Numbered from the stretch's first letter, positions 2,968-22,096 are shown. The stretch is 64,000 bases of DNA from Candidatus Parcubacteria bacterium (GCA_003599625.1 QZIU01000008.1:1690-65689), one strand, 5' to 3'. The notes: generated by a model from the letters alone, not told the origin. Program-made: numbers and translations.

Positions 2968-2990
2968 TTATAGCTGGCTACGCAATTGCG

Positions 2991-3030
2991 GAAAAGTTGT
3001 GGATAACTCAGCCAACCCGGCGGGTTGAAA
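2991..3030 (+). repeat. REP-like element copy 1 (TGTGGATAACTCAGCCAACCCGGCGGGTTG)
   Basis: Same ~45-nt family as 14609, 15096, 16702(rc) and 20725. Contains a perfect DnaA-box-like nonamer (rc TTATCCACA) and a 15-nt palindrome. Confidence 0.7.
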
Positions 3031-3094
3031 AGGGGTTAGAAGCGGCTTGAAAGCGAGAAAAAACTTAGGCATAATAAGAACGCACCACAAAATT

Positions 3095-3177
3095 GCGCGG
3101 GTGGCGAAATGGCAGACGCACTACCTTGAGGTGGTAGCGCCCTTACGGGCATGGAGGTTCAAGTCCTCTCCCGCGCA
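3095..3177 (+). tRNA. tRNA-Leu (anticodon GAG), long variable arm
   Basis: Manual cloverleaf: 7-bp acceptor stem gcgcggg/cccgcgc, anticodon stem ctacc/ggtag with loop ttGAGgt, long variable arm, T-arm ggagg-ttcaagt-cctct. Confidence 0.8.
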
Positions 3178-3191
3178 TTTCTTATTTTTAT

Positions 3192-3266
3192 GGTGGCTAT
3201 AGTTTAGTGGTAAAACTCCGCTCTGTGAAAGCGGTATCGAGAGTTCGATTCTCTCTAGCCACCCCA
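3192..3266 (+). tRNA. tRNA-His (anticodon GTG) with encoded G-1 and CCA
   Basis: Extra 5' G before the acceptor stem gtggcta/tagccac, anticodon loop ctGTGaa, and CCA encoded at 3264-3266. Confidence 0.8.
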
Positions 3267-3268
3267 TC

Positions 3269-3337
3269 GGGTTGTAGTACCAGCCTACCGGCAGGCAGGT
3301 ACCGGTAGTACGCACGTTTCGGGGTTCTCAATTTTCT
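3269..3337 (+). pseudogene. Degenerate partial copy of the tRNA-Pro 5' half, interrupted by an 18-nt GC palindrome
   Basis: gtagta...ggtagtacgcacgtttcgggg mirrors the D-arm/anticodon-arm sequence of the downstream tRNA-Pro but cannot fold as a tRNA. The palindrome cctaccggcaggcagg is inserted. Confidence 0.35.
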
Positions 3338-3408
3338 CGGGGTGTAGTATATCGGTAGTACGCACGCTTCGGGTGCGTGAAGGCCGAGTTCAATTCTCGG
3401 CACCCCGA
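3338..3408 (+). tRNA. tRNA-Pro (anticodon CGG)
   Basis: Acceptor stem cggggtg/caccccg, anticodon stem cacgc/gcgtg with loop ttCGGgt, T-arm ggccgagttcaattctcggc. Confidence 0.8.
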
Positions 3409-3439
3409 GAAAGTTGAGAACGGGAATGCCATACGGCAT

Positions 3440-3500
3440 TCCCCGGGAATCTTGATAAAAGATTCGTGTAGACCGGGTTCGATTCCCGGCAGCCCGACCA
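3440..3500 (+). other. tRNA-like 3' fragment (anticodon-like arm with a 9-nt loop containing GAT, canonical T-arm, acceptor 3' strand plus CCA) lacking a matching 5' acceptor strand
   Basis: T-arm ccggg-ttcgatt-cccgg followed by cagcccg-a-cca. No upstream cgggctg partner is present, and a 9-bp hairpin gggaatgcc/ggcattccc sits where a D-arm would be. Confidence 0.3.
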
Positions 3501-3571
3501 TTGACTTCTTAATCCGACCGTGTATTATATTCTCATAAGCCCGGGAAGGGGCTTTTTTAAGAAGCAAAAGA

Positions 3572-3754
3572 ATGTCAAAACTGACAAATTACATAAAAGA
3601 GACGAAAGTCGAACTCAAGTCCGTTAATTGGCCTACGAAAAAGCAGGCTTTAAACTATACTTTGTTGGTGATAGGCGCTTCCGTGGCCGTCGCCGCTTTC
3701 CTTGGCGTATTTGACATGCTATTTGCTTATTTATTGGGAAAATTCATAATATAA
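3572..3754 (+). CDS. secE: Preprotein translocase subunit SecE
   Basis: 60-aa single-TM protein immediately upstream of nusG. This conserved secE-nusG-rplK synteny plus the SecE-like C-terminal TM helix support the call. Confidence 0.75.
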   Translation: MSKLTNYIKETKVELKSVNWPTKKQALNYTLLVIGASVAVAAFLGVFDMLFAYLLGKFII

Positions 3755-3758
3755 AACC

Positions 3759-4304
3759 ATGTCGAAACAAAAAGTCCAAGCCGGAAGAAACTGGTATGCC
3801 GTCCATACTTATGCCGGCTATGAAGATGCCGTGGTTAGAAATCTCAAGCAAAGAATGGAATCCTTGGGAATGGAAGACGTTATCTTCAATGCCATAGTTC
3901 CGACAGAGAAAAAAATAAAGATACAAGGAGGGAAGCGAAAGGTTGTAGAAGAAAAAATATATCCGGGCTACGTGCTGGTGGACATGGTCGTTACGGACAA
4001 TTCCTGGTACGTCGTGCGGAATACTCCCAGGGTGACGGGATTCGTCGGCGCGGGCACCACGCCGGTGCCGCTGGAGAAAAAAGAAATCGACTTTCTTTTC
4101 GAGAGAATGGGCATGGCGGAGCCGAAGTATAAGATGGATATCAAGGCGGGGGATGTTGTGAAGATAAACGACGGACCGTTCAAGGATTTTGAGGGAAGCG
4201 TCAGCGAGATAGACGAAGAAAGAGGCAAGATCAAAATTTTGGTTTCAATGTTCGGTAGGGAAACGCCGGTAGAAATAGATTATTTGCAAGTCAAAAAGAT
4301 TTAG
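3759..4304 (+). CDS. nusG: Transcription termination/antitermination factor NusG
   Basis: NGN domain (WYAVHTYAGYE) plus a C-terminal KOW motif (GDVVKINDGPFKDFEGSV). Confidence 0.9.
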   Translation: MSKQKVQAGRNWYAVHTYAGYEDAVVRNLKQRMESLGMEDVIFNAIVPTEKKIKIQGGKRKVVEEKIYPGYVLVDMVVTDNSWYVVRNTPRVTGFVGAGTTPVPLEKKEIDFLFERMGMAEPKYKMDIKAGDVVKINDGPFKDFEGSVSEIDEERGKIKILVSMFGRETPVEIDYLQVKKI

Positions 4305-4383
4305 ATTAAAGTTGTAGGAATTAGGCGTAGTGCTTGATTTTAATTCCTAAGAAGCTAACTCCTAATTCCTAAAAAGCTAACAT

Positions 4384-4809
4384 ATGGCAAAAAAAATAAA
4401 AACAATAGTAAAATTGCAGATTCCGGCCGGTAAGGCGACCCCGGCTCCTCCGATCGGTCCGGCCTTGGGCCAACACGGAGTCAATATCGGTGAATTCGTC
4501 AGCAAGTTCAACGAAGCGACGAGAGAGAAAGGAACCGATGTTATTCCGGTTGAGATTTCAATTTACGATGATCGGACTTTTTCATTCAAAATGAAGACTC
4601 CTCCGGCTTCCGACCTGTTGAGAAAAGCCGTCGGTGTTGAGAAAGGTTCCGGCAAGAATGTGGCGAGCAAGGTTGGAAAGATCACAAGGGAAAAACTCAG
4701 AGAAATAGCGGAAAGAAAAATGGAAGACCTCAACGCGAACGATGTGGAAGCCGCGATGAATATAATAGCGGGTACGGCCAGAAGCATGGGAGTCGTGATT
4801 GAGAAATAA
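4384..4809 (+). CDS. rplK: 50S ribosomal protein L11
   Basis: [26 protein letters not shown] is the L11 signature. Confidence 0.9.
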
Positions 4810-4820
4810 AGAATTAATCA

Positions 4821-4858
4821 AAAGCCATCATTCGAAAGATTTGATGGCTTTTGTTGTG
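4821..4858 (+). terminator. Rho-independent terminator after rplK
   Basis: 9-bp stem aagccatca/tgatggctt followed by a T-rich tail. Confidence 0.55.
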
Positions 4859-5201
4859 TTTGAGAATAAAGTGCTTTATCATTAAAGCAAATAGGACCTT
4901 ATTTTATTTCTGTACTTTAAATGCGAAAGGGGAATATATGCGTTGGAATGAAGGATTTAAATTGAGTTCTTTTTATTGCATTGGCAAGGTAACTCATGAT
5001 GGCGCGGGAAAACCGGTTGGTGTAAACAAAAACACCGGACTGCCCAAAATGCCGAGAGGTTATCTGAAGGGGATCTCCGATTTTTTCAAGCGGAAACAGG
5101 GGATTGAAACCGAAAAAAACAAGTGCGGCATTGCGGAAGCCATAGAAAATTTAAGTATTCCGTCCACGAATCTCAACTCTTACGGCATACCCGTTAAATA
5201 G
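4851..5201 (+). CDS. Hypothetical protein (occupies the position where rplA is usually found)
   Basis: ORF only, no recognisable motif. The real start is probably the internal Met near 4938. Confidence 0.25.
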   Translation: MLCLRIKCFIIKANRTLFYFCTLNAKGEYMRWNEGFKLSSFYCIGKVTHDGAGKPVGVNKNTGLPKMPRGYLKGISDFFKRKQGIETEKNKCGIAEAIENLSIPSTNLNSYGIPVK

Positions 5202-5254
5202 TTATTTATTATTTTTTTGCTTCTTTATGATCGGCCACGGGAGGATGGCCGATT

Positions 5255-6280
5255 TTATTTTACTTGAATCGTCTCTTTCGCCGCCGCTTTTATCTTTTCT
5301 TCCAATTCTTGGATCAATTTGGGATTTTCTGCTAGGTGCGTTTTGGCGTTGTCGTATCCGCGGCCGAGACTTTGGCCGTCGTAGGAGTAGGAAGCGCCCG
5401 CTTTCTTTATGATCTCATATTTTTCGCCCAAGTTTAAAATATCGCCGGTATAAGAAATTCCCTCGTTAAAAATGATGTCAAACTCGGCGGTTCTGAAGGG
5501 GGCTGCCACTTTATTTTTCACAATCTTTACTTTTACGCGGTTGCCGATAACATCTTCTCCTTTCTTGATCTGCGCCGCTCTTCTGACCTCAATTCTTACC
5601 GAACAATAAAATTTAAGAGCTTTTCCTCCGGGGGTGGTTTCCGGATTACCGAACATAATGCCGATCTGCATTCTGATCTGATTGATGAAGATAACGACGG
5701 TTTTTGATTTGGCGGTAATTGCCGTCAGTTTTCTGAGGGCTTGGGACATCAGCCGGGCCTGCAATCCGACATGGGATTGGCCCATTTCTCCTTCGATCTC
5801 GGCTTTAGGGGTAAGCGCGGCCACCGAATCGATAACAACGACATCGATACTGCCGGAGCGAACAAGGCTTTCCGTGATCTCCAAAGCCTGTTCTCCCGTG
5901 TCAGGTTGTGAGACGAGCAGGTCGTCGATCTTGACGCCAAGTTTTTTGGCATACTCCGGATCTAGGGCGTGTTCAGCATCGATGAAGGCGCAGACCCCGC
6001 CTTTTTTCTGGGCCTGAGCTATAGCGGTCAAGGCCAAAGTTGTCTTGCCGGAAGATTCCGGACCGTAAACCTCAATGATCCTGCCTCGCGGCAAACCGCC
6101 GACTCCAAGCGCCATATCAAGACTTAGGGAGCCGGAAGGTATGACATCAACATCAACCTTGGGTGTTTCGCCAAGCTTCATTATGGATCCGTCGCCGAAT
6201 TTGCTCTTGATATCGCGAAGAGCATTCTCAATGCCTGTGTCCCTGCCCTTCGATTCTTTTGGTTCTTTTTTTGAAATCAT
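5255..6280 (-). CDS. recA: Recombinase RecA
   Basis: Walker [14 protein letters not shown]1/L2 loop regions, and overall RecA-like sequence across 341 aa. Confidence 0.95.
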
Positions 6281-6281
6281 G

Positions 6282-6632
6282 TTATTTATATACCAACTCC
6301 AGTATCTCCTTTACCTGTCTGCCGAATTTATCCATGCCTGACACCTCTATTATATTGTAGCCGGAGGCAAGGAGCAAATTTCCTTTAAAATTTCCGTCCT
6401 TGTCGGTAAAAATTTGTCGCCCGTTGAGAAACACGCTGGATACATTCAGCGCCTTTCCTGTAATTTCCGTGTATGATTTTTTTACTCCTTCGCCGCTCCT
6501 GGGGGATTCGATTATTATCTTCGGCCCCTCGAGAAAAGCCTTGGCTTTGTAAAGCCCGTAGGCGCCGAAAGAGAACAGCAAAAGAGCGATGATACCGGCG
6601 CTGGTTAAAATTTTTGTTTTTTGCAAAGTCAT
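6282..6632 (-). CDS. Hypothetical membrane-anchored protein, co-transcribed upstream of recA
   Basis: N-terminal signal-anchor helix. There is a 1-nt gap to the recA start. Confidence 0.4.
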
Positions 6633-6659
6633 TTTATTAAAGCTCTTTTTAAATTCTAA

Positions 6660-8891
6660 TTAAACTTGCTCTTCCTTTGACCCCGCTTCTCCCAGTAACT
6701 TATCCGCTTCCGCTTCCAGCGCGGCGCTTTCCGGATTCTCATTGCCAATAAGCACTTGTCTCGCTTTGGCGCCGTCTCCCTGGCTTATCACCCCGCGCTC
6801 CTCGAGCATGTCTATCAGCCGGGCGGCCCTGGCATAGCCGATCTTCAGCTTCCTTTGCAGGAATGACGTGGAAGCTTTGCCTGTCTCGATCACAGTTTCT
6901 CTCGCTTCCTCGTACATATCGTCGTCCATGTCATCTGCCGCTTCATCAAAGTTGATTTGGAGAGCTTGGGTCGAACCGTTGGCCGCCTGTTCGGTGGCCA
7001 GGCTTAGGTCTTCAAAGTCCACATTCTTGTACTTGTCGGCCAGATAGTTGACTACATTCTTGACTTCTTTCTCGGAAATATACGGGCCCTGGATCCTTCT
7101 CGGTTTGGCTGTATCTCCGGCCAGGAAGAGCATATCGCCGTGGCCGAGCAACTTTTCCGCCCCTGCCATATCGAGGATCGTCCTGGAGTCTATCTGAGAA
7201 GCCACCTGAAGAGCCACTCTGCTGGTGATGTTGGCTTTTATCAGACCGGTGATTACTTCAACGGACGGCCTTTGTGTTGAAAGAACAAGGTGAATGCCCA
7301 CCGCTCTCGACATTTGCGCAAGTCTTACTATGGAAGCCTCCACCTCCCTCGGGTAGGTGCTCATCAAGTCGGCCAACTCGTCGATTATGACCACAAGGTA
7401 AGGCATGGGCGGGTTGTTTTCCTTCTTTTCTTTGTGATATGAATGAATATCTCTGACGCCGGCCGTCATCAGGGTGTCATATCTTCTTTCCATTTCCTTT
7501 GTCAGCCATTTAAGCGTAAGAATCGCTTTTTTGGTGTCTATTATCGCGGGGGTTAGCATATGAGGAATACTATTGTATACGGTAAGCTCCACGCGTTTTG
7601 GATCTATCATGATGAACCTCAGATTTTCGGGAGAGTTACGATAGAGCAAACTCACAATAAAAGCATGAATATAAATGGACTTGCCGCTGCCCGTAGCTCC
7701 GGCCACGAGAAGGTGAGGCATCTTGGCGACATTGGAATATATCGGCTTGCCCGCCACATCCCGTCCAAGAGCCACAAGAAGCGGATCCGGTTTCTTGTAT
7801 CCTTCGTCGGCAAACAAGCTTGCCAACCCGATTATCGTCTTGGAGCTGTTTGGAATCTCAATGCCGACCAAAGATCTCCCGGGGATAGGGGCTTCTATTC
7901 TTAAGGGGTGAGCCGCAAGAGCAAGGGACAGATCGTTTTGCAAAGCAAGAATTCGGGAAAGTTTGATCCCTTCGGCGGGCTTCAGCGTGTATTGAGTAAC
8001 GGAAGGACCGATATTTATTTCCCCCAGTTCAACCTCGATGCCAAAGTTCTGAAGAGTTCTTTTGATTATGTTGGCATTGGCTTTGATGTCGCCGCTCGAA
8101 GGCTTGCCCTTGTCTCCCTCAAGAAGGCTCAATGGGGGCATCTCGAAATCCATTTTTTGTTTTCTGGCGCTTCCGACATAGGAATCGGTCTTCAGGTCGG
8201 GGAGCTCTTCCTCTTCCTTTTCGGCGGCCTTTTTCGGCAGAGCGTTTTTTATCTTTTCCGTCAGTTTTTCTTTTATGGACGACCCCGCCTTTTCTTTCTT
8301 CTCTTCCGCTTCGGCCGTTTCTTCGTCTGATTCTTCGATCTCATCCTCATCCTCGTTATCCCTGACGCTTCGCTTGAAACTCAACTTAAGCGGCATGTTG
8401 AGCATCACTAATATGGAAACGAGACAGATGCCTATAAGGATGATGAGACTCAGAGAGAGGTCGAAGAATTTGAGCAGAGGATAAGAAACAAAATAGCCGA
8501 CATAGCCGCCTCCGCTTATGCCCCATACGGAACCTATCGCGCCAAGCGAGCTGATCAGAAAAATCGAACCGCCGATGATGGTATGAGAAACAATGCTCGG
8601 GCGAAGCGAGTATATAAAGGACACTGCCGCAAAGAGCAAAACTATCGGCGCCAGAAATGACCCGTTTCCAAAAAGAGCGGTGAATATTTTATTTATGAAG
8701 TCTCCGGCCGGACCCGCTTTGTCCAGATAAGACAAAATAAAAACAGCCGCCGCGACAAGAGAAATGATCCCCAGGATCGAATGCTTGGTCTCTCGCTTCA
8801 ATTCCCCGAAGAGTTTATTGACGGGTTGTTCTTTTTTGTGGACAGCGGCCTTAGGCGTTTCCTTCTTTTTTTCTTTTCTAACTTTTTTCAC
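6660..8891 (-). CDS. ftsK: DNA translocase FtsK/SpoIIIE
   Basis: N-terminal TM helices, Walker A GATGSGKS, and a C-terminal gamma/winged-helix domain (QRKLKIGYARAARLIDMLEERGVI). Confidence 0.9.
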   Translation of the reverse strand: MKKVRKEKKKETPKAAVHKKEQPVNKLFGELKRETKHSILGIISLVAAAVFILSYLDKAGPAGDFINKIFTALFGNGSFLAPIVLLFAAVSFIYSLRPSIVSHTIIGGSIFLISSLGAIGSVWGISGGGYVGYFVSYPLLKFFDLSLSLIILIGICLVSILVMLNMPLKLSFKRSVRDNEDEDEIEESDEETAEAEEKKEKAGSSIKEKLTEKIKNALPKKAAEKEEEELPDLKTDSYVGSARKQKMDFEMPPLSLLEGDKGKPSSGDIKANANIIKRTLQNFGIEVELGEINIGPSVTQYTLKPAEGIKLSRILALQNDLSLALAAHPLRIEAPIPGRSLVGIEIPNSSKTIIGLASLFADEGYKKPDPLLVALGRDVAGKPIYSNVAKMPHLLVAGATGSGKSIYIHAFIVSLLYRNSPENLRFIMIDPKRVELTVYNSIPHMLTPAIIDTKKAILTLKWLTKEMERRYDTLMTAGVRDIHSYHKEKKENNPPMPYLVVIIDELADLMSTYPREVEASIVRLAQMSRAVGIHLVLSTQRPSVEVITGLIKANITSRVALQVASQIDSRTILDMAGAEKLLGHGDMLFLAGDTAKPRRIQGPYISEKEVKNVVNYLADKYKNVDFEDLSLATEQAANGSTQALQINFDEAADDMDDDMYEEARETVIETGKASTSFLQRKLKIGYARAARLIDMLEERGVISQGDGAKARQVLIGNENPESAALEAEADKLLGEAGSKEEQV

Positions 8892-8986
8892 AAGTTAATT
8901 ATACTTCCTATTTTCAGCAAACTCAAAAGGAAAAATCATTGAATTGATTTTTTTAGAATGTCCGTTAAAATGTCTCTAATGCAAAA

Positions 8987-9754
8987 ATGCCGAAGGAGCT
9001 TTTTAAAGGACAAAGCAAGATAAATATAATGGACAACATTAAAGACATATTCGATCACATTACGGACAGAACCCAAAAGCTAACAGCGGCTTTATATAGG
9101 GTTACTGACCTTTTGTCCGATAAAGAACCGTTGAAATGGACACTCAGGGACAAAGCGCTAGTAATTCATGATAATCTGGTGATCATTAGAAAGACAAAGG
9201 ACAAGAATGGTTTGATATTCGAATCCGTGGATTTGATATCCGCGGTAACGAGGTCTTTGGAACTTGCCGCTTATGGCGTTTGCGTCTCCAGCTTGAATTT
9301 CGAAATCTTGAAAAGAGAATATTCCAATTTAAAGAATTTCATAGAAGGGAAAAAAGAGGAGATCTCATACGATCCGGAACTTCTCTCGGGCATTTCCGCG
9401 TCGGAAAAAATCGAAGAAAAAAGCGTCAAAAATTTTACGGAAAAAAGGGAGAATTCAATACCGAAGGAAAGTCTCCGTCCGGCAGACCTATTCGCCAAAA
9501 GACCTGCTTTGACTCCCATTCAAATAGACCCCAAAAGCCGGAAGGGCAGGATATTGGATTTGCTTAAAGGCGGAGCGGGAAAAACTGTAAATGAAATAGC
9601 CTCCGTTTTCACGGGCGAGACTAGCGAAAAATCAATACAAAGGGATCTTTTGGATCTTGTTAAGCATAGGAAGGTTTTGGCGATCGGGGACAAAAGATGG
9701 CGCAAATACGAAATAATTAAAGAAAATACGAACCTCGAGGCGGCAAGCGTATGA
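8987..9754 (+). CDS. Hypothetical protein with a C-terminal winged-helix-like segment
   Basis: C-terminal GRILDLLKGGAGKTVNEIA...IQRDLLDLVKH resembles a wHTH. No other motif was found. Confidence 0.35.
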   Translation: MPKELFKGQSKINIMDNIKDIFDHITDRTQKLTAALYRVTDLLSDKEPLKWTLRDKALVIHDNLVIIRKTKDKNGLIFESVDLISAVTRSLELAAYGVCVSSLNFEILKREYSNLKNFIEGKKEEISYDPELLSGISASEKIEEKSVKNFTEKRENSIPKESLRPADLFAKRPALTPIQIDPKSRKGRILDLLKGGAGKTVNEIASVFTGETSEKSIQRDLLDLVKHRKVLAIGDKRWRKYEIIKENTNLEAASV

Positions 9755-9755
9755 T

Positions 9756-9784
9756 TTGACAAAAACTAAGCTTTGATGTATCAT
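9756..9784 (+). promoter_or_regulatory. Candidate sigma70-type promoter (TTGACA-17-TATCAT) at the head of a 480-bp leader upstream of the giant surface-protein gene
   Basis: Spacing and hexamers read directly. The long AT-rich leader 9785-10237 contains a gcggct...gccgc hairpin. Confidence 0.3.
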
Positions 9785-10237
9785 TTTAGGTCTGATTGAC
9801 CCTGTATTCCGTTTCTGCCATAATATGCCCTAGACTCTGATTTTATTAAGGAAACGCCCGGAACAATTCCGGAGTTATCCACAGTTATTATTTGCGCGAC
9901 TTTTTTTTGCGGTTTATAATAATATTTAATAATCAGAAAAATGAGAAACGGATAGGCAGCGATGATGGCCCGGAAGCGTGTCTGACCTTTGAAAATCAAA
10001 TAACGATGGATGCATTAAAGATCATGGAAAGAAATTGCTGAATTTCAGAATTGAAAACTTCAATTAGAATTCGATTGAACAGATTAATTAGATTATTGGA
10101 TAATTGCGCGAAATATTCGGTTTTGTCGAAATCGGATCAAATTCGCGCGAGAAGTAATTTCGCTTTCGGTCGCGGCTAATAAAAAGCCGCAACAAAGTTC
10201 ATGAAGGCGAAGTTATATTAAGAGATTAGAAAACATT

Positions 10238-13795: not shown

Positions 13796-13810
13796 ACTAA
13801 CCATCTTGTG

Positions 13811-13874
13811 TCCCGCTTTTAGCGGGAGGTTAAGCGAAAACACCGCGCCCTATGGGCGCGGTGTTTGCTTTTGG
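13811..13874 (+). terminator. Tandem hairpin terminator after the surface-protein gene
   Basis: Hairpins tcccgcttttagcggga and aaacaccgcgccctatgggcgcggtgttt are followed by a T-run. Confidence 0.6.
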
Positions 13875-13907
13875 TCGCCTTTTTCCTTAAAATAAAACAA
13901 AAGCAAA

Positions 13908-14597
13908 ATGACCAAAAAAATTATTTTAATTACCTTATCAATTCTCCTGTTTGGATCGGTAGGCTTTTATATCAAAGAAAATATTAAAAACAGTAAGGAG
14001 GCAGCTCAAAAAAACGGCAACAAAACTCAGAATAATAATCCTGGCATAGTTGTTGAGGGAAACGGCAATTATGAGGTTAAAAAAATTGATTTGCCTAAAA
14101 ACTTCGAAAATATAGATAAAATTCCGATGCCTGATTTAGATAAGCCGATCATGGCTCTGCCTGGCGTTGATGATATAACTCTAAAATTCGCGACGGAAAA
14201 GATCAAAGAAGTAACAACCAGATTAAAAGCAAACAAATATTCTCTGGAAGATTGGTTGATCTTGGGAGTTCATCGCAAAACCATAGAAGATTACGAAGAA
14301 GCGAGGACAATATGGACATACGCCGGCCTTGCCTGGCCCCAAAATGAGAGATCTTTCCATAACCTCGGCGAGCTTTACGGATACTACTTGAAAGATTACA
14401 AAAAAGCCGAAGAAAATTACAAGAAAGCCTTAGAAAACAACCCTTCCGCCATTTATATTTACCGCAATTTTGCCGATTTCTACCGCTTTGTTATCAAAGA
14501 TAACACTAAAGCCAAAGCTATTCTTGAACAGGGCATTGCCGCCAACCCCGGCGAAGCTCCCCTCGACCTCCAAAATCTTCTCAAGGCCATAAAATAG
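13908..14597 (+). CDS. Membrane-anchored tetratricopeptide (TPR) repeat protein
   Basis: N-terminal TM helix followed by repeated W-LG-Y/A-F-P TPR-like 34-residue patterns. Confidence 0.65.
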   Translation: MTKKIILITLSILLFGSVGFYIKENIKNSKEAAQKNGNKTQNNNPGIVVEGNGNYEVKKIDLPKNFENIDKIPMPDLDKPIMALPGVDDITLKFATEKIKEVTTRLKANKYSLEDWLILGVHRKTIEDYEEARTIWTYAGLAWPQNERSFHNLGELYGYYLKDYKKAEENYKKALENNPSAIYIYRNFADFYRFVIKDNTKAKAILEQGIAANPGEAPLDLQNLLKAIK

Positions 14598-14608
14598 CTG
14601 TTCATAAT

Positions 14609-15146
14609 CTGTGTATAACTCATCCAACCCTGCCTACCGGCAGGCAGGCCGCCGGGTTGGAATTACCGATTTTCTAAGCTATAATCCCAGGCATGGGAAA
14701 TATTTACCATATCTTGAATCGGGGGGTTAATAAAGATCCGATTTTTCTCGGCACTAACGACTATTTGCGTTTTATCTACTGTCTTCATCGCTTCAACAAT
14801 CGCGGTCGCAGGCTTGGCGAAAGAGAAGATCCGAAGGAATACCTCAAAGACCCTCCTCCTCAAGACAAACTGGTCAATATTCTAAAGTGGAGCCTGATGC
14901 CGAATCATTATCATATTCTGGTTGAAGAAGTGGTCGAAGGAGGCGCGCTTAAATTCGTCCAGCGGGTTATCGCTGGTCTGATTATTTTTTAAGTGTTGGG
15001 AGCAGGGAGTTCCCGATGATAAGCGACAAAGAGGCCTTTTTTGAACTGTATGAAACCAACGAAGAAAAATATCTCGACAGCTTCCACGACTGGCTTGTGG
15101 AAAACCTGTGAACAACTCAGTCATGCCTGCCGGTAGGCAGGTTGGA
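14609..15146 (+). mobile_element. Minimal IS200/IS605-family-like element (~540 bp): Y1 HUH transposase gene bracketed by two REP-like subterminal hairpin sequences
   Basis: The left hairpin repeat lies at 14609-14662 and the right hairpin repeat at 15096-15146. Between them is a single tnpA-like ORF with a HUH motif. The size is typical of tnpA-only IS200 elements. Confidence 0.55.
14693..15111 (+). pseudogene. IS200/IS605-type Y1 (HUH) transposase, frameshifted near the T6 run at 14981-14990
   Basis: Frame 2 gives YHILNRGVNKDPIF...LMPNHYHILVEE (HUH motif). Frame 1 continues with DYFLSVGSRE...EEKYLDSFHDWLVENL, whose ~20-residue tail resembles the C-terminal end (…YIENQ-like) of this tnpA family. 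Whether a catalytic Tyr is retained was not verified. The two pieces are in different frames. Confidence 0.6.
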
Positions 15147-15266
15147 AAAGAGAATTTAACTTGTTTGGTTGTCAAAAATTCAAAATTTTGGCAAGTTGGG
15201 AAATAACCCTTTAGTAAAGGGTTATTTTTTTGTCAAAATTTTAGAAATATTTTATCTCGGTTTGGT

Positions 15267-15956
15267 ATGATAGAATTAATTAATCAAGTCTTATTCAAAA
15301 AAATGCTAAAGTTTATAAAATTAAATCTTACAAAAATAAAATACGCTGGCAATTCCGTTGGCCGTGATATTAGAGTAGAGATTGAAGCCTTTGGAAAATT
15401 TTTCCGAGTTGATAAAAGAATTAAAGCGGGAGAAGCAAAAAGTATTGATCAAGAAATCTTAAGATTAGAATCAGATCAGGATGTGTTGCAATCAGATCTT
15501 GCCATAGCAGTCATCGAAAAAGATTTATTGTTTAGCGATACCGGCGCGCTGAAAAGCAGCATTAAAATCGATGTTGCCTCGGAGAAGTCACAAATATTCA
15601 GGTTTAATGTGGAGGTAAAGGAAAGCCGTTCGCTGTTGAGCAAATTATTCTGGGGCGGCAGGAAAGCCGTTTTCGAACTTGAATTTGAAGCGATAATCGG
15701 AGATGTCGAGAGATATATCCCAAATACGAAGGATGGCTGGTTTTTGACATTGGATAATAAGGATGACAATGCGTCATTGCCGGAATATCTAAAGTTGATC
15801 TTAAGGTATGAAAAGGGTGGACGTGAATCTGGGTTGGTTTCTGCGGGCTGTATCTCTATTGCAGAAACTGAGCGGTGGATGGAAATATACCGCACTCTTA
15901 TCAAAGCGCGCAAAGGAGATAATAGAAGTGTCGGTGTTTTAAAGGTTGTTGATTGA
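15267..15956 (+). CDS. Hypothetical protein
   Basis: ORF only. Its start codon lies 121 nt downstream of the REP-like copy at 15096-15146 that ends the IS200-like element. Confidence 0.4.
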   Translation: MIELINQVLFKKMLKFIKLNLTKIKYAGNSVGRDIRVEIEAFGKFFRVDKRIKAGEAKSIDQEILRLESDQDVLQSDLAIAVIEKDLLFSDTGALKSSIKIDVASEKSQIFRFNVEVKESRSLLSKLFWGGRKAVFELEFEAIIGDVERYIPNTKDGWFLTLDNKDDNASLPEYLKLILRYEKGGRESGLVSAGCISIAETERWMEIYRTLIKARKGDNRSVGVLKVVD

Positions 15957-16749
15957 TATTTCTATGCCTGGAAAATCTTTTTCAAAAGCCATTGCAATGA
16001 TTTTTGGGATAATTATCGCAATTTCTTTTTTGGCATTTGCTCTGCGTTGGAATAAAAAAGAAGAGGTTTCTCAGGTGGCAAAGCAATTAAGTCTGCCAGT
16101 TATAAGCTGGAAAAAAATTACCATAGAGAAGGAACCAAAAAAGTTCTTAATAAGCTTAAGGGTTCCCGAGGTGGCTTTTTACACCAATGATTCCTTGGCC
16201 GAAAAAATTAACGAGGATGTTGATAGATATATCGGAGCATTGAAGGATACTTTTATTCGAGGTGTCATAACTGCCGCCGATGATAACGGGGAAGCAAGCA
16301 CTCTCAATATCGATACGGAAATATTGCTTATGTCACCGCGTTTGATTTCCCTGGCTTTTACATCATCAGACCATCTGTCTGGCGGCAAAGTCGGCGACCT
16401 CGAGCGAACATATCTTATTTTCGACCTTGAAAAGGGCGAAATGATGAGGGAGGGAAACGAACTGTTTCGCGATGATTTGGCTTGGGCGGAAGCGGTAAGA
16501 ATAATGAAGCCGCTGCTGCTTTCTAAATATGACGGAGAACCAAGCTGTGATCTGATGTTTGCCCCGAAACGGGAAGCTTTCTCGGCCTCTTGCATCGGAG
16601 TTGATTACAACAATGAAGATAAAGGTCCTTTTTCTATATTCGGAGATATCCCAATTTCCGCAATCCAAGAATTTGTCGCTCCATGGGCGTTAAAAGAGAT
16701 TTTCCAACCCGGCGGGTTGGATGAGTTATCCACAGGTTTTCCACAATAA
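15946..16749 (+). CDS. Hypothetical membrane-anchored protein (possibly DUF3298/RsiV-like extracytoplasmic domain)
   Basis: N-terminal TM helix. The last 12 codons are supplied by the inverted REP-like copy at 16702-16746. Confidence 0.35.
   Translation: MLIDISMPGKSFSKAIAMIFGIIIAISFLAFALRWNKKEEVSQVAKQLSLPVISWKKITIEKEPKKFLISLRVPEVAFYTNDSLAEKINEDVDRYIGALKDTFIRGVITAADDNGEASTLNIDTEILLMSPRLISLAFTSSDHLSGGKVGDLERTYLIFDLEKGEMMREGNELFRDDLAWAEAVRIMKPLLLSKYDGEPSCDLMFAPKREAFSASCIGVDYNNEDKGPFSIFGDIPISAIQEFVAPWALKEIFQPGGLDELSTGFPQ
16702..16746 (-). repeat. REP-like element copy in inverted orientation (contains TTATCCACA)
   Basis: The reverse complement matches ttgtggaaaacctgtggataactcatccaacccgccgggttgg. 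Confidence 0.7.
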
Positions 16750-16855
16750 GGGCTGCTTGCAAATTATGGACTTTAGAAAGATTTTATCTCGGTTTGGTAA
16801 GATGGAATCGTTTTTATTTTTACTTTTAAAATAACGACAAAAATGAGAAAATGAA

Positions 16856-17512
16856 TTGGAAGTCGAAATTAGAAAATTAAACAAATTTAAAATGAAACTT
16901 TTCAAAAAGATAATCATAAGAGCGGTATTGGTAATAGTCATTCTCTTTATTGGTCTGGTAATCTATCGCATTCCTCATGTGATAAAGAAAAGTAAAACAG
17001 AAGAATTGGTTGCAAAAATCCATAACACGAAACTCGTCATGGACGATGTGATGGGCAAGAATTTGCCGCCCGATCCGGGAATGGAAGCGGATAAGACGGT
17101 CCAAGGAATCGATGCAAACCAAAACGGCATCCGAGACGATGTGGAGTTGGCCATCTTCAAAGAATATCCGAATTCGGCCAAAACCAGGGCGGCGCTTTTG
17201 CAATATGCGTTGGCGTTGCAGATGGAGATGAGTCAGTCGTTTCTGAATACAGAAGTGGTGATTGCGGCGATACAGGAGGCAAGCAGAGCTAATATTTGTG
17301 TTGCCGATACTCTTGTACCAAGGAAAAGTCCTGAATCTGCGAGAGAATATTCCGACTTAGAGAAAATCGATAAATATATTGATTTTGTTGAAAAAAAGCA
17401 GCTTAACACGGATGAAAGAAAAAGATTTAGAAAAGAGTTTTATAAAAAAATTGGAAGTTATAACTCTTTGCCGCATGTTTGCGATATTGATTATTCGTTG
17501 CTAGTAAATTAG
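16856..17512 (+). CDS. Hypothetical membrane-anchored protein
   Basis: N-terminal TM helix. No conserved motif recognised. Confidence 0.4.
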   Translation: MEVEIRKLNKFKMKLFKKIIIRAVLVIVILFIGLVIYRIPHVIKKSKTEELVAKIHNTKLVMDDVMGKNLPPDPGMEADKTVQGIDANQNGIRDDVELAIFKEYPNSAKTRAALLQYALALQMEMSQSFLNTEVVIAAIQEASRANICVADTLVPRKSPESAREYSDLEKIDKYIDFVEKKQLNTDERKRFRKEFYKKIGSYNSLPHVCDIDYSLLVN

Positions 17513-17514
17513 GA

Positions 17515-20500
17515 ATGAATCGTTTAGGCTTTATGAAAATATTTTCGTTAATTTTTTTAGGATTTTTCCCTGTGTTTAATTTTGTTTCAGCAAGCGAGAT
17601 TAAGTGTTCTGCCACAGGCTATTCAATCTTTGCTATAAACGGGATTTTTGTTGATGAAGACGAAGCAGATGACAATAAAACCGCACTTGAAAAAATTCTA
17701 CCTCCTTCCTTCAACAATCAACCCATCACCGTCGACTATCTCCACAACCCTTCTCATCTCGCCGGTCTGGGGGACTTGGTAAAGGTTGTATATCAGAAGA
17801 TCTTCGAATACGAGACGGTGATGGACTATGATCTGGTGGAAATGATCAGAGACGCCAGCGAGAAGGTGAAGACGCAAAAAGTCCTTCTCGTGGCTCACTC
17901 CCAAGGAAATTTCTACGCCAACAGTTTCTACGGCAGCGTGGCCGGAAAAGAAGGGGGTGTCCCCAAAGAATCCATAGGCGTTTACGCCGTCGCCACTCCG
18001 GCCGCAAGAGTGGCCGGAGAAGGGGGTTGGCTTACCTCCGACACCGACAAGGTCATCGCCGGCCTGATGTCGAAATTCCCGTTCAAACAAATCATGCCGC
18101 CCAATGACAGCATTGTCTTGAAAGAAGGCGATGATGAAATGGGACACAATTTTTCCCTCGTGTATCTCAAGTATAGCGGCGGAAAAATTGTCTCCGATAT
18201 CCAATCCTCTTTAAGTAAACTAACCTCAAGCGATGTTCAAGAGGAAGAAGAGAATTGCATCGATCCTCCGAAGATAACTTTGGCGCATAAGACCACGGGG
18301 GCGCTATTGGGCGTCTCCGACTTTGCCGGAGAATCGGTTGTCGATGCCGCCAAGGTTGTGGGAGAAAAATCATATCAACTGGGTTCATTGGCCGTAAAGA
18401 CCACCGAGCAAGTGGCTTCGGCGATAATAAAGGCTCCGGCTTTGATTTTAGGAGGTGGCCAAACTGATAACTCGGCCGCCGTCGCGGGGAATCCGGGAAA
18501 TTCCCAACCTGAGCCTGCTGAAAACTCTGCGGGTGGGCTGGAGTCTGTTGAAAACTCTGCAGTCCTGCCTGGTCGTCTTCGACCTGCCCGCCAGCCACTC
18601 TTCGCTGGCGATAGCGGGCGGGGAAGGTCGGCAGAGTTTTCAACAGGTGAAGTTGCTTCTAGGACTGCGGAGTTTTCTGCGGGAGACTCTACTAGCGAGC
18701 TGTGGAAAACTTCGCTCACCTTGCAGGTTGAAGACAACCAGCCAGGAGAGCGAAGTTTTCCACAGCCCCTTCGATCAAGAGGTTCGAATTTTTCCTCAAT
18801 CGCCCAACTCCAAAATTCTTTGGATGAGATGAGAAGACAAGCCGAGGCTTTGATGGAAGCGGAGAAGGGTGCGAAAAATGATCAAGCGGCTGAAGCTGAA
18901 GCCGCGACTCGCCAAGCCTCCCGTCCAACCCTTCTCTTCCTCGGTCCTCTGTATCCCGGCTTTGGCGGTGGAGCAGCTCCGAGTCAAATATCTCTTGTCT
19001 CAGAATCGAATCAACAGGAAGAAGAGGAAGAAGAAGAACAAGAGCCGGACTCTCTTTCGGCCCCGAATCTTCTCGTCCCTCAATGCGATTACTCTTTGGC
19101 TACGGACGGCTGTCTCCTCGCCACAACCACCGTATCATTTTCCTGGCAAGCCGTTTCCGGAGCTAGTCATTACGCCGTAAGCAAAAATGGAGAATACGCC
19201 ACGACCACGGAATTAAATTTTGTCGCAAACATCCCCGATTTCTCCGATTACAATTTCTCCGTCTCGGCCTCGTCGGCCGCTATCAGCCCCGCTTCCAGCG
19301 GGACAAGCACTCAAACTGTCTCTGTCGCCACTATTCCAATTGCCATAAACGAGATCGCCTGGATGGGAACAACCGCCTCTTCCTACGACGAATGGCTGGA
19401 AATCAAAAACAATACAAGCCATACGATAGACTTGTCTCAATGGGCCATAGAATCCCAAGACGGCCTGCCATATATCGCTCTTTCCGACGCGATCGGTCCG
19501 AAAGAATACCTTATCCTTGAAAGAAGGCAAGACGCGATAATCGTAAATCAATCCATCATTACCTACGGCACCGGAGCTTCCCAATGGGCGATGAGCAACA
19601 GCGGCGAAGAGCTTATCCTTTCTCATTCCTCCACCACGCTGGACAGAACCCCATCCGTAGCAGGCGAATGGGCCGCCGGAGACAGCGCAACCAGAAAAAC
19701 GATGGAGCGCGTCAATCCCAAAGGATCAGGAACCGATCCTTCCAACTGGACCACTTGGGGGGCAAATATCGATTTCATCAAAAGCGGCGAAGACACCGAT
19801 AATAACTCAATCTCCGGCACGCCCGGCCAATGCAATTCCGCAAGCTTCATCAACATCAACAACGGCCAAAACATATATCAGGATCTCACCCTTGAAAAAG
19901 ATAATTGCTATTATGTTTCAGAGAATATCCAAGTCTCGGCCACATCAACTCTTGCAATCGAATCCGGCGTTCAAGTCAGTCTTTATCTGAATAATCTTGT
20001 CGTCAACGGTGTCCTTGATGCCGAGGGGGAAGAAAGCAATCCGATAGTTTTCGATTCTTTTTCCGAAAATCCGACAACAAACAGGATAAGGATAAATAAC
20101 GATAACGGAACCAGTACAATGACCAATGTCGTTATCTCAAACACGGGAGGAATCAGGTTGAACAACGGAGCCGATCTGGAGATAACCAACGCGGAATTTA
20201 TCAACAACAATGCCAGCATCGAACTAAACAACAACAGCTCGGCGGAAATTGAAAACGTGACTTTCGCCAGCACCACGAATGAGGCGATCGCGGCGTACAA
20301 TGGCAGCAGTGTTTCTGTCGCTTCTTCCACTATATCCAACACCATCAACGCCGACGCTATCGGAATATACGATTCCAATCTATCGATGTCTTCGACAACG
20401 ATAGACACCGTTCTTGGCGGCGACGGCATAGGCGTTTATGATTCGACAGTTTCCATAGCCAGCTCTACGATCAGCAATGTTTTAAACGGAGATGGCATCA

Positions 20501-20715
20501 CCGCGTATCATTCAACCGTATCAATATCGACTTCCACAATAAGCGACATATCGAGCGAGATGCCGGCAAGAGACGGCATTAGTCTTTATGATGAATCTGT
20601 CGCGACTGTCCTAGACGCGGTAATCGAAAATGTCTCCGGCGAAGGTATAATCGTTTCGGAAGACAGTAGTATCTCCGGCAACGCGATAATAGAGGGGGAG
20701 GAAGTGGAGTTCTAG
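17515..20715 (+). CDS. Secreted multidomain protein: N-terminal alpha/beta-hydrolase (lipase-like) domain, GC-rich linker carrying an inserted palindromic element, lamin-tail domain (LTD), C-terminal right-handed beta-helix repeats
   Basis: Signal peptide. Nucleophile-elbow-like VAHSQGN is present. The LTD signature INEIAWMGT...DEWLEIKN...GEELIL is present. There are ~10 repeats of the xxISNTxxxDGIxxYxS beta-helix type. Confidence 0.75.
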   Translation: MNRLGFMKIFSLIFLGFFPVFNFVSASEIKCSATGYSIFAINGIFVDEDEADDNKTALEKILPPSFNNQPITVDYLHNPSHLAGLGDLVKVVYQKIFEYETVMDYDLVEMIRDASEKVKTQKVLLVAHSQGNFYANSFYGSVAGKEGGVPKESIGVYAVATPAARVAGEGGWLTSDTDKVIAGLMSKFPFKQIMPPNDSIVLKEGDDEMGHNFSLVYLKYSGGKIVSDIQSSLSKLTSSDVQEEEENCIDPPKITLAHKTTGALLGVSDFAGESVVDAAKVVGEKSYQLGSLAVKTTEQVASAIIKAPALILGGGQTDNSAAVAGNPGNSQPEPAENSAGGLESVENSAVLPGRLRPARQPLFAGDSGRGRSAEFSTGEVASRTAEFSAGDSTSELWKTSLTLQVEDNQPGERSFPQPLRSRGSNFSSIAQLQNSLDEMRRQAEALMEAEKGAKNDQAAEAEAATRQASRPTLLFLGPLYPGFGGGAAPSQISLVSESNQQEEEEEEEQEPDSLSAPNLLVPQCDYSLATDGCLLATTTVSFSWQAVSGASHYAVSKNGEYATTTELNFVANIPDFSDYNFSVSASSAAISPASSGTSTQTVSVATIPIAINEIAWMGTTASSYDEWLEIKNNTSHTIDLSQWAIESQDGLPYIALSDAIGPKEYLILERRQDAIIVNQSIITYGTGASQWAMSNSGEELILSHSSTTLDRTPSVAGEWAAGDSATRKTMERVNPKGSGTDPSNWTTWGANIDFIKSGEDTDNNSISGTPGQCNSASFININNGQNIYQDLTLEKDNCYYVSENIQVSATSTLAIESGVQVSLYLNNLVVNGVLDAEGEESNPIVFDSFSENPTTNRIRINNDNGTSTMTNVVISNTGGIRLNNGADLEITNAEFINNNASIELNNNSSAEIENVTFASTTNEAIAAYNGSSVSVASSTISNTINADAIGIYDSNLSMSSTTIDTVLGGDGIGVYDSTVSIASSTISNVLNGDGITAYHSTVSISTSTISDISSEMPARDGISLYDESVATVLDAVIENVSGEGIIVSEDSSISGNAIIEGEEVEF
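18510..18775 (+). repeat. GC-rich palindromic MITE/RPE-like element(s) inserted in frame in a coding region (16-bp TIR ctgttgaaaactctgc at 18546/18631, core cgacctgcccgcc...ggcggggaaggtcg)
   Basis: Local GC content far exceeds the genome background. Nested inverted repeats are present. The core is shared with 21309-21429. Confidence 0.6.
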
Positions 20716-20724
20716 CCATGATTT

Positions 20725-20770
20725 CCTGTGGATAAACCTGTTGATAACTCAGCCAACATGCCGGGTTGGA
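20725..20770 (+). repeat. REP-like element copy between convergent genes (cctgtggataaacctgttgataactcagccaacatgccgggttgg)
   Basis: Family match. Overlaps the last codons of the minus-strand glycosyltransferase gene. Confidence 0.65.
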
Positions 20771-22089: not shown

Positions 22090-22096
22090 ATTTATG

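Follow-up and report, generated by a model that had tools for sequence, protein, structure and literature searches.

Dispersed REP-like repeats with a DnaA-box doublet around a Y1 transposase remnant in a Candidatus Parcubacteria contig

Introduction

The nearest precedents for a mobile or dispersed sequence with sites for the replication initiator DnaA are the DnaA site in the ends of Tn5 (PMC3347997) and the DnaA-box clusters located outside oriC (PMC2533591). Tn5, whose ends contain a binding site for DnaA, uses this protein as a host factor (PMC3347997). In Bacillus subtilis the stable binding of DnaA depends on how densely the boxes are packed locally and on their affinity, and sites of this kind tend to be found close to oriC (PMC2533591). 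A link of another kind is found among the Y1 transposases, as the proteins of their subclass 2.1.2 possess a C-terminal domain similar to Bac_DnaA_C (PMC6006769). For repetitive extragenic palindromic (REP) elements with DnaA boxes a literature search returned nothing direct, and no description of a system comprising REPs and a REP-associated tyrosine transposase (RAYT) was found in it for Parcubacteria or the Candidate Phyla Radiation (CPR).

The subject of this work is a family of short REP-like repeats in a 64,000-nt stretch of DNA of a Candidatus Parcubacteria bacterium (GCA_003599625.1, QZIU01000008.1:1690-65689), called the window throughout, in which positions are counted from its first nucleotide. 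The repeat was indicated by an initial annotation made from the sequence alone, which described five copies carrying a perfect DnaA box and overlapping stop codons. This observation is real and well beyond chance. The repeats are probably the non-autonomous, REP-like ends of a RAYT/IS200-like element of a Y1 (HUH) transposase, of which a remnant lies between two of the copies.

Results

Structure of the repeat

The window contains one repeat of ca. 47 nt in five copies, A, C, D, E, and F (Table 1), all situated between positions 2985 and 20771; their orientation is given relative to the consensus ATTGTGGAAAACCTGTGGATAACTCAkCCAACCCGCCGGGTTGGAAAA. The pairwise identity is 87% over 47 nt for copies A and E, 89% over 38 nt for E and F, 84% over 32 nt for C and E, and 77% over 43 nt for D and E. 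Since the five copies are alike also at the positions outside the DnaA boxes and in the hairpin, they descend from one sequence and are not binding sites that evolved independently. The REP-like nature of the repeat proposed initially is borne out by the Y1/RAYT-type transposase remnant between copies C and D and by the relatives, in which an intact gene of this kind has hairpins on both sides.

Each unit comprises a 25-nt 5' handle, the sequence AACTCA, and a GC-rich imperfect palindrome. AACTCA is invariant in five of the five copies, and the bases at the hairpin foot are AACTCA(T/G). The palindromes differ: copies A, E, and F carry CCAACCCGCCGGGTTGG, in copy C a second hairpin, TGCCTACCGGCAGGCA, is nested in the loop of the former, and copy D carries this second hairpin in an inverted form, so that the single consensus given in the initial annotation does not hold for the hairpins. 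As single-stranded DNA, the simple hairpins of copies A, D, E, and F are modest (-6 to -8 kcal/mol, z from -0.5 to -2.3); copy C folds with -13.3 kcal/mol and z of -3.2. In a scan of 185,579 species-representative genomes the 20-mer spanning the handle-hairpin junction was matched only seven times, by isolated sequences of unrelated taxa and thus at the chance level, and the type-1 hairpin was not found in any fetched locus of the relatives. The matches to Rfam at the gathering score are confined to three tRNAs, the repeats matching no Rfam family.

Two details concern copy C. It starts 2 nt after the stop codon of the upstream gene, closer than the 10-80 nt stated earlier for the copies that do not overlap coding sequence. 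Its 3' end, TTGGAA, together with TATAAT 17 nt downstream, forms a promoter-like site (14657-14685) just 5' of the transposase remnant, to which copy C may thus supply the -35 element.

The handle as a DnaA-box doublet

The handle consists of two head-to-tail 9-mers of the DnaA-box type, spaced by 11 nt from start to start; in copy F the two boxes of the doublet are one base further apart, i.e., have a spacing of 12 nt. The pattern TGTGNAWAA-NN-TGTGNAWAA is matched with at most one mismatch in copies A, C, D, and E, against a chance expectation of 0.42 computed with up to two mismatches allowed. The tandem doublet first noticed in copy F is thus present there, though it is a trait of the whole family and not peculiar to that copy. 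CTGTGGATAACTC is identical to box R4 of the Escherichia coli oriC, including its flanks, and CCTGTGGATAAC to R1 (both read from MG1655).

The exact nonamer TTATCCACA occurs four times in the window, with 0.51 occurrences expected, and the number of four was reached in one of 100 shuffles. All four sites lie inside copies A, E, and F and in site B, described below; three of the five copies thus have the exact box, as had been claimed, and the fourth occurrence, at site B, was absent from the original list. The relaxed consensus TTWTNCACA is found 14 times (7 expected), nine of these in repeat elements between 3 and 21 kb. The 13-mer of the handle, CTGTKGAWAACTC, with at most two mismatches, is found 13 times, in 12 cases between 2997 and 20750.

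The 24-mer pattern of the handle, with 19 fixed and five two-fold positions, has a probability of ca. 1e-13 per position to occur by chance, and the expected number of chance matches is well under one if the collection searched, public metagenomes and viral contigs, is assumed to have a size of ca. 1e12 bases. The scan revealed 55 loci in 21 unrelated sequence clusters of G+C content from 29% to 66%. Three of the 21 clusters (L012, L049, and L052) lie beside dnaA, in L012 with dnaA-dnaN directly downstream, nine have further boxes nearby, and the largest adjoins a gene of the AAA_25 helicase type. Many of the hits are arrays of TGTGGATAAcc units with 11-nt phasing. The origin-type arrays, the dnaA neighbours, and the 21 contexts indicate that the handle is a generic DnaA doublet of the origin type and not a vague resemblance to one; the claim of a perfect DnaA box is strengthened in this way, the box being part of an 11-bp-phased doublet, identical together with its flanks to oriC R4 and found elsewhere beside dnaA. 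Judged from its sequence, the doublet is likely to be bound by the host DnaA in the double-stranded copies. No homologous repeat was found in the metagenomic and viral scans, none of the hits having the CCAACCC hairpin. In some metagenomic and viral contigs (L039, L048/L063, and L057/L060/L061) 11-nt-phased TGTGGATAAcc arrays are situated between G-run/C-run inverted repeats, which place the arrays of DnaA boxes in hairpin loops on phage-like contigs.

The transposase remnant and its intact relatives

Copies C and D are, respectively, the left and right flanks of a Y1 transposase gene remnant. Both are in direct orientation, with the handle and the outer stem on the same strand, and their inner hairpins are mutually reverse-complementary. 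The remnant comprises an N-terminal part of 99 aa, in which the HUH motif is kept (NHYHILV), followed by a C-terminal piece of 31 aa; the middle third, ca. 100 aa, including the region of the catalytic tyrosine (GYTxYFN...YIHxNP), is missing, so this copy is a pseudogene. The open reading frame (ORF) 14693-14992 shows weak direct matches to Y1_Tnp of Pfam and to the REP-associated tyrosine transposase model of NCBIfam, and both this ORF and the out-of-frame piece 15016-15111 match the full-length gene of a relative, L064 (phmmer, 1e-18 and 1e-6, respectively). A profile built from the N-terminal part of the remnant collected 2253 cluster representatives, typically of 210-250 aa. Y1_Tnp was matched by 59 of 65 full-length members of the family, whose consensus contains the HUH motif (MPNHFHLL), GYTxYFNxKYxRxGxLFQG, and YIHxNP, i.e., the family as a whole has both the HUH and the catalytic tyrosine motifs. 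The presence of a DnaA-like domain in this family was considered and rejected (Bac_DnaA_C in none of the 65 members, hhalign probability of 0.7%), and recognition of the box by the transposase itself is accordingly not supported for the family.

In three relatives (L072, L074, and L075) a homologue of the 267-aa gene of the window is directly followed by an intact Y1_Tnp gene with GTTGGAAACCGAGTTTCCAAC on both sides, located in the place occupied in the window by copy E. In L064 the homologous transposase gene is bracketed by GGTATCGCATACC hairpins, of which the 3' one overlaps the gene end. This pairing of transposase and hairpins in the relatives, together with the remnant between copies C and D, points to a REP-RAYT or IS200-like system with hairpins specific to each lineage.

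An uncharacterised pair of genes, coding for proteins of about 229-325 aa and about 245 aa, is kept together in L072, L074, L075, L076, and L077 and in the window (15267-16749), and in several genomes it adjoins a Y1 transposase gene. The closest relative, L008, has a 320-nt deletion in the first gene of the pair.

Insertion of the repeat and protein C-termini

Copy A is missing from the spacer of about 60 nt between the L19 gene and tRNA-Leu in the relative L079, and its presence in the window is thus the result of a lineage-specific insertion. In L008, the closest relative available (89% protein identity), DNA homology extends up to window position 16714, in the loop of the copy E hairpin, and stops there. 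A genome with a protein identity of 89% is present in the sample SRR13727534. Copy E is absent at the orthologous places in L072, L074, L075, and L084.

The ORF 15946-16749, coding for the 267-aa protein, spans the whole of copy E, and its stop codon TAA (16747-16749) lies on the boundary of the element. All 16 of its 16 homologues end with D(I/V)(I/V/T)Q and a stop codon. The protein of the window has 13 extra residues, PGGLDELSTGFPQ (16708-16746), after the ancestral final Q (16705-16707), whereas in L074 and L084 the ancestral end ATTATTCAATGA (IIQ and a stop) is followed by unrelated DNA, in L084 free of any repeat. Since the homologues end at this Q and the window protein continues with 13 residues encoded by the repeat, the C-terminus of this protein has been rewritten by the element.

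Two other reading frames end within the repeat. The GT1 gene (20749-22089, minus strand) owes its last seven codons and the TGA to copy F, the protein ending with IPTRHVG and the TGA being the complement of the invariant ACTCA. Solved homologues, compared here in place of orthologues, can be aligned no further than residue 432 and end in tails about as long, and the C-terminus is compatible with replacement or extension driven by the repeat. In the transposase remnant the last codons, VENL, and the TGA at 15109-15111 are supplied by copy D, this stop codon having arisen by a G-to-A change inside box 2. Members of the family continue for 10-25 residues past the conserved (D/E)WL motif, while in the remnant copy D follows the motif directly; the residues after (D/E)WL, checked for the possibility that box 1 is leftover coding sequence of the transposase C-terminus, are not conserved in the family. 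The overlaps of copies D, E, and F with stop codons are accordingly confirmed in all three cases, and of the rewriting of C-termini that had been deduced from them, one case is established by alignment with homologues, in the transposase the usual tail of 10-25 residues has been replaced, and the end of GT1 is compatible with such rewriting.

Site B and other palindromic elements

A further DnaA box adjacent to a hairpin, site B, lies in the leader/promoter region 350 nt upstream of a gene coding for a giant surface protein of 1185 aa (PG_binding), ca. 30-60 nt downstream of two strong promoter-like sites (9756-9824). It is conserved in 25 of 27 bases at the orthologous position of L065 (about 19100-19135), a representative of another genus with L19 80% identical, in an intergenic alignment that is otherwise patchy; the common sequence is CCGGAAyAAyTCCGG-AGTTATCCACA. 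Site B is most plausibly a conserved regulatory site, which may depend on DnaA, lying outside the mobile family; it may be a DnaA-controlled site or an attenuator.

The second hairpin is also found alone, within a tRNA-Pro fragment (3266-3336) located just upstream of the real tRNA-Pro gene, where the alignment with tRNA-Pro shows a 20-nt insertion, CCAGCCTACCGGCAGGCAGG. Long palindromic elements are located in frame inside two ORFs. Those in the 1066-aa ORF have the termini CTGTTGAAAACTCTGC (18545-18646) and GCTGTGGAAAACTTCGCTC (18699-18766), with fold z of -8.0 and -11.7, respectively; the termini are handle-like, so that these elements look like inverted pairs of handles around a core. The element in GT1 has a 74-nt core 91% complementary to 18569-18642 and a fold z of -8.4, its termini showing no clear resemblance to the handle. 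For checking the in-frame insertions the L082 1066-aa ORF was tried as a homologue and rejected as unrelated.

Genomic setting

The window is part of a 78-kb contig; three of its proteins show 100% identity, over the full length of the database sequences, to NCBI entries from this contig, two of which bear C4572_ locus tags. The G+C content is 45-50% over bases 1-24,000 of the window, the part which contains core genes (L19, tRNAs, NusG, L11, RecA, and FtsK) and all the repeat elements. A sharp compositional step is found at ca. 24,000, and the stretch of 24-64 kb, with a G+C content of 36-38%, comprises a long co-directional cluster of about 35 ORFs without annotation and no handle-bearing repeats. 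Neither a dnaA gene nor an origin was found in the 64-kb window by motif search or by skew, there being no skew switch. Tandem heptamers, AATTTTC and GCTACAA, of about four units each, occur in several places in both orientations, one GCTACAA run lying inside the second GT1 ORF (22019-23263). In the related Parcubacteria L065, L069, L081, and L082 the region 3' of L19, before the tRNA/SecE-NusG-L11 block, is an insertion hot spot, the cargo of which comprises a DAO oxidase gene, reverse-transcriptase/bAvd genes resembling a diversity-generating retroelement, or Fic/LAGLIDADG genes with DNA-methylase and nuclease genes; in L081 it is a full restriction-modification set (DNA methylase, R-HinP1I, and Vsr).

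Table 1. Repeat copies and other features located in the window
Feature	Position	Strand	Description
Copy A	2985-3031	+	handle TGCGGAAAA-GT-TGTGGATAA, ACTCAG, hairpin CCAACCCGGCGGGTTGA; between L19 terminator and tRNA-Leu promoter
Solo second hairpin	3279-3300	+	GCCTACCGGCAGGC, in D-loop part of truncated duplicate of the tRNA-Pro 5' half
Site B	9853-9890	-	CTGTGGATAACTC directly followed by a different hairpin, CCGGAATTGTTCCGG
Copy C	14599-14662	+	handle TGTTCATAA-TC-TGTGTATAA, ACTCAT, outer stem CCAACCC/GGGTTGG, inner hairpin TGCCTACCGGCAGGCA in loop
Y1 (RAYT/IS200-like) transposase pseudogene	14693-15111	+	internally deleted, frame-shifted; between copies C and D
Copy D	15095-15146	+	handle TGTGGAAAA-CC-TGTGAACAA, ACTCAG, hairpin TGCCTGCCGGTAGGCA (reverse complement of copy C inner hairpin), then GGTTGGAAAA
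Copy E	16701-16749	-	closest copy to consensus; read through by ORF 15946-16749
Nest of long palindromic elements	18512-18766		in frame inside 1066-aa beta-helix/LTD ORF
Copy F	20725-20771	+	handle TGTGGATAA-ACC-TGTTGATAA (12-nt phasing), ACTCAG, hairpin CCAACATGCCGGGTTGG; between two convergent genes
Palindromic element in GT1	21307-21430		in frame, linker between two glycosyltransferase domains
Tandem heptamer repeats (AATTTTC/GCTACAA units)	1656-1693, 25942-25979, 27317-27354; 22777-22804, 26212-26239		

Discussion

The origin of the repeats as ends of a Y1 transposase element, which is the reading favoured here, suggests a mechanism analogous to that of IS608 and of the E. coli TnpA-REP system. 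At the replication fork, the hairpin folded by single-stranded DNA would be the target of the transposase, and the cut site would be set by the bases at the hairpin foot, for which the invariant AACTCA is the candidate; the whole unit would then spread and come to lie next to gene ends or on them. In the reading direction that begins with the hairpin, the unit has a TGA in one frame and is otherwise open, and it can therefore replace or extend a C-terminus without destroying the gene. In the window the family looks like a fossil, as the sole transposase copy is dead and the repeats are decaying. The DnaA doublet is most likely an accessory part of the element or its passenger, comparable to the DnaA site in the ends of Tn5/IS50.

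Several observations weigh against this account. The sample consists of five copies from one 18-kb stretch of a single contig of a metagenome-assembled genome. The repeats lack the classical GTAG motif and occur singly, not as inverted pairs of the REPIN type, the transposase copy in the window has no catalytic region, and the family has no DnaA-like domain. The REPs which flank the intact transposases in the relatives carry no DnaA box, hence the box is not a requirement of this transposase family. Site B is a DnaA box beside a hairpin that is conserved and non-mobile in this lineage. Box 2 varies at three of nine positions and box 1 at more; the boxes decay about as fast as the rest of the element, and there is no sign of extra selection on them. 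Finally, the hairpins vary while the handle is constant, the opposite of what hairpin-directed recognition would give, and this hints that the handle may be the part recognised by a protein, DnaA or another, so that a handle-binding function stays in play.

Such a function may be that the doublet is operative in the element: the handle would be bound by host DnaA or by some protein that has a DNA-binding domain of the DnaA type, and the repeat of a single-strand tyrosine transposase would thereby be coupled to the replication machinery, or else the dispersed copies would act as a buffer of free DnaA in what is a very small genome. To this there is only a small chance. As the stem of the long palindromic forms includes the box, such a form would restore a double-stranded DnaA box on single-stranded DNA, by analogy with the DnaA-dependent ABC-primosome site. 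If this is true, the family would be the first of the REP type with a tie to the replication initiator; as single-strand transposition is already tied to the fork, a repeat recruiting the initiator would link mobile DNA with the control of initiation, and many copies of the handle could shift the pool of free DnaA.

It is unlikely, on the other hand, that the resemblance to DnaA boxes is a coincidence, with one repeat family among many happening to contain them and DnaA not binding it in vivo. The finding was picked after the fact, upon recognition of a familiar motif, and both the decay of the boxes in step with the neighbouring bases and the REPs of related transposases, free of boxes, agree with a chance resemblance. 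However, several independent parts match, namely, two boxes, their head-to-tail arrangement, the 11-bp phasing, and the flanks identical to those of R1 and R4, and the same 24-mer was selected independently in 21 other contexts, including regions upstream of dnaA.

That the repeats are DnaA-binding sites selected by the host, dispersed for titration or regulation in the manner of datA or the B. subtilis clusters and with the repeat structure being secondary, is quite improbable. Such sites would be expected to resemble what is seen in that the boxes are origin-grade doublets at helical phasing, 12 of the 13 handle-like matches of the window fall within 18 kb, and a box with a hairpin, site B, is conserved in another genus; the dependence of DnaA binding on box density and affinity in B. 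subtilis is a precedent (PMC2533591). Nevertheless, each element has only two boxes, with 0.4-11 kb from one element to the next, relatives are devoid of copies A and E at the orthologous places, and in ca. 126 kb of the relatives' DNA boxes occur at background density only. Moreover, the conservation of the box positions does not exceed that of the adjacent bases, AACTCA being invariant, the window has neither a dnaA gene nor a skew switch, and the REPs at the intact transposases of the relatives lack boxes. Titration of DnaA is thus speculative, and titration selected by the host is less likely than an accessory or passenger role of the doublet.

Doubtful to a greater degree is the possibility that the handle is the recognition site of another protein, encoded elsewhere, such as a transposase of the terminal-inverted-repeat-associated (TIRYT) type with a helix-turn-helix similar to DnaA domain IV, the palindromes being its cargo. 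The handle is indeed constant across at least four different palindromic cores and forms the terminal inverted repeats of the in-ORF elements, and Y1 proteins of subclass 2.1.2 with a Bac_DnaA_C-like domain do exist, but their published inverted-repeat consensus is unlike DnaA boxes (PMC6006769). No such protein is encoded in the window, and the local transposase family, as said above, shows no Bac_DnaA_C either in the 65 members searched or by hhalign.

It is highly improbable that the repeats are intrinsic terminators or 3' mRNA-stabilising hairpins, a role suggested by the initial annotation: this would explain why every copy lies at or just past an ORF 3' end, and hairpins of E. coli REPs do stabilise the upstream mRNA, but the sequence after the hairpin is A-rich one way and ATGAGTTATCC the other way, which leaves no T-run in either orientation, the copies are not uniformly oriented with respect to transcription (A, C, and D in one sense, E in the opposite), the L19 gene is provided with a canonical terminator of its own (2941-2965) upstream of copy A, and the hairpins are weak (-6 to -8 kcal/mol and z of -0.5 to -2.3 in A, D, E, and F). 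A terminator scan flagged the antisense side of E and B only.

An integron attC site was also considered for the repeat and rejected. ATCCAAC...GTTGGAA is like the attC pattern RYYYAAC...GTTRRRY in 13 of 14 positions, but the hairpin has 17 nt against a structure of at least 57 nt, and, with the genes in front of them co-oriented, copy E is inverted with respect to C and D. The ORFs scanned in the repeat region included no integrase.

As ends of a Y1 transposase element, the repeats represent a system of the REP-RAYT type in the CPR and indicate that very small genomes tolerate palindromic repeats both at and inside coding sequences. In the conserved 267-aa protein, the addition of 13 residues by a repeat is seen in a clean form.

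Comparison with known systems

A close likeness is to the REP sequences and bacterial interspersed mosaic elements (BIME) of Enterobacteria and Pseudomonas with their RAYTs. Common features are the dispersal at gene ends of short, imperfectly palindromic sequences preceded by a conserved 5' extension, a gene for a Y1 HUH transposase flanked by the repeats, and a transposase that is vertically inherited and single-copy or degenerate. The Parcubacteria (CPR) repeats differ in the lack of GTAG, in having a 25-nt handle instead of a tetranucleotide, this handle being a DnaA-box doublet, in occurring as singletons and not as inverted doublets, and in the location of several copies inside coding sequence. 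As regards the REPIN organisation, the five copies are single, and it is the in-ORF palindromes 18545-18646 and 18699-18766 that have inverted handle-like termini. The HUH motif and catalytic tyrosine required in REP-RAYT systems are both present in the family, whereas the window copy keeps HUH without the tyrosine region.

With the IS200/IS605 family (IS608, ISDra2) the locus shares a Y1 gene placed between subterminal hairpins in direct orientation, with no terminal inverted repeats, and conserved bases 5' of the hairpin foot, at the place of the guide sequence in IS608. The top strand of four of the five copies coincides with the G-rich strand, which weakly fits activity on the lagging-strand template. 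In contrast to these insertion sequences, there is no intact element in the window, solo ends far outnumber the gene, and the cleavage site is a candidate deduced from sequence only. The outside and mosaic ends of Tn5/IS50 are similar in that the end of a mobile element carries a DnaA binding site, predicted in the present case; Tn5, however, has a DDE transposase acting on double-stranded ends, a single TTATACACA-type box, and no hairpin. The TIRYT proteins, Y1 subclass 2.1.2, likewise connect an HUH tyrosine transposase with recognition of the DnaA type (PMC6006769) and have terminal inverted repeats, as do the in-ORF palindromes of the window, but the transposase family described here is devoid of the Bac_DnaA_C-like domain and the repeats of subclass 2.1.2 are unlike DnaA boxes.

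The datA and DARS loci of E. coli and the DnaA-box clusters (DBC) of B. subtilis (PMC2533591) resemble the repeats in having boxes of the high-affinity type, judged here by sequence, in intergenic DNA outside the origin. They are, however, unique conserved loci with several boxes in a short span, whereas here a two-box module resides in a dispersed and decaying repeat, the positions of which are not conserved in relatives (copy A in L079; copy E in L072, L074, L075, and L084), site B being the only conserved one. Lastly, the Rickettsia palindromic elements (RPE) are, like the elements at 18512-18766 and 21307-21430 and the tail derived from copy E, in-frame palindromic repeats which add peptide segments to proteins; they come from a different phylum and are not related in sequence, and in the system described here a candidate transposase family is identifiable.

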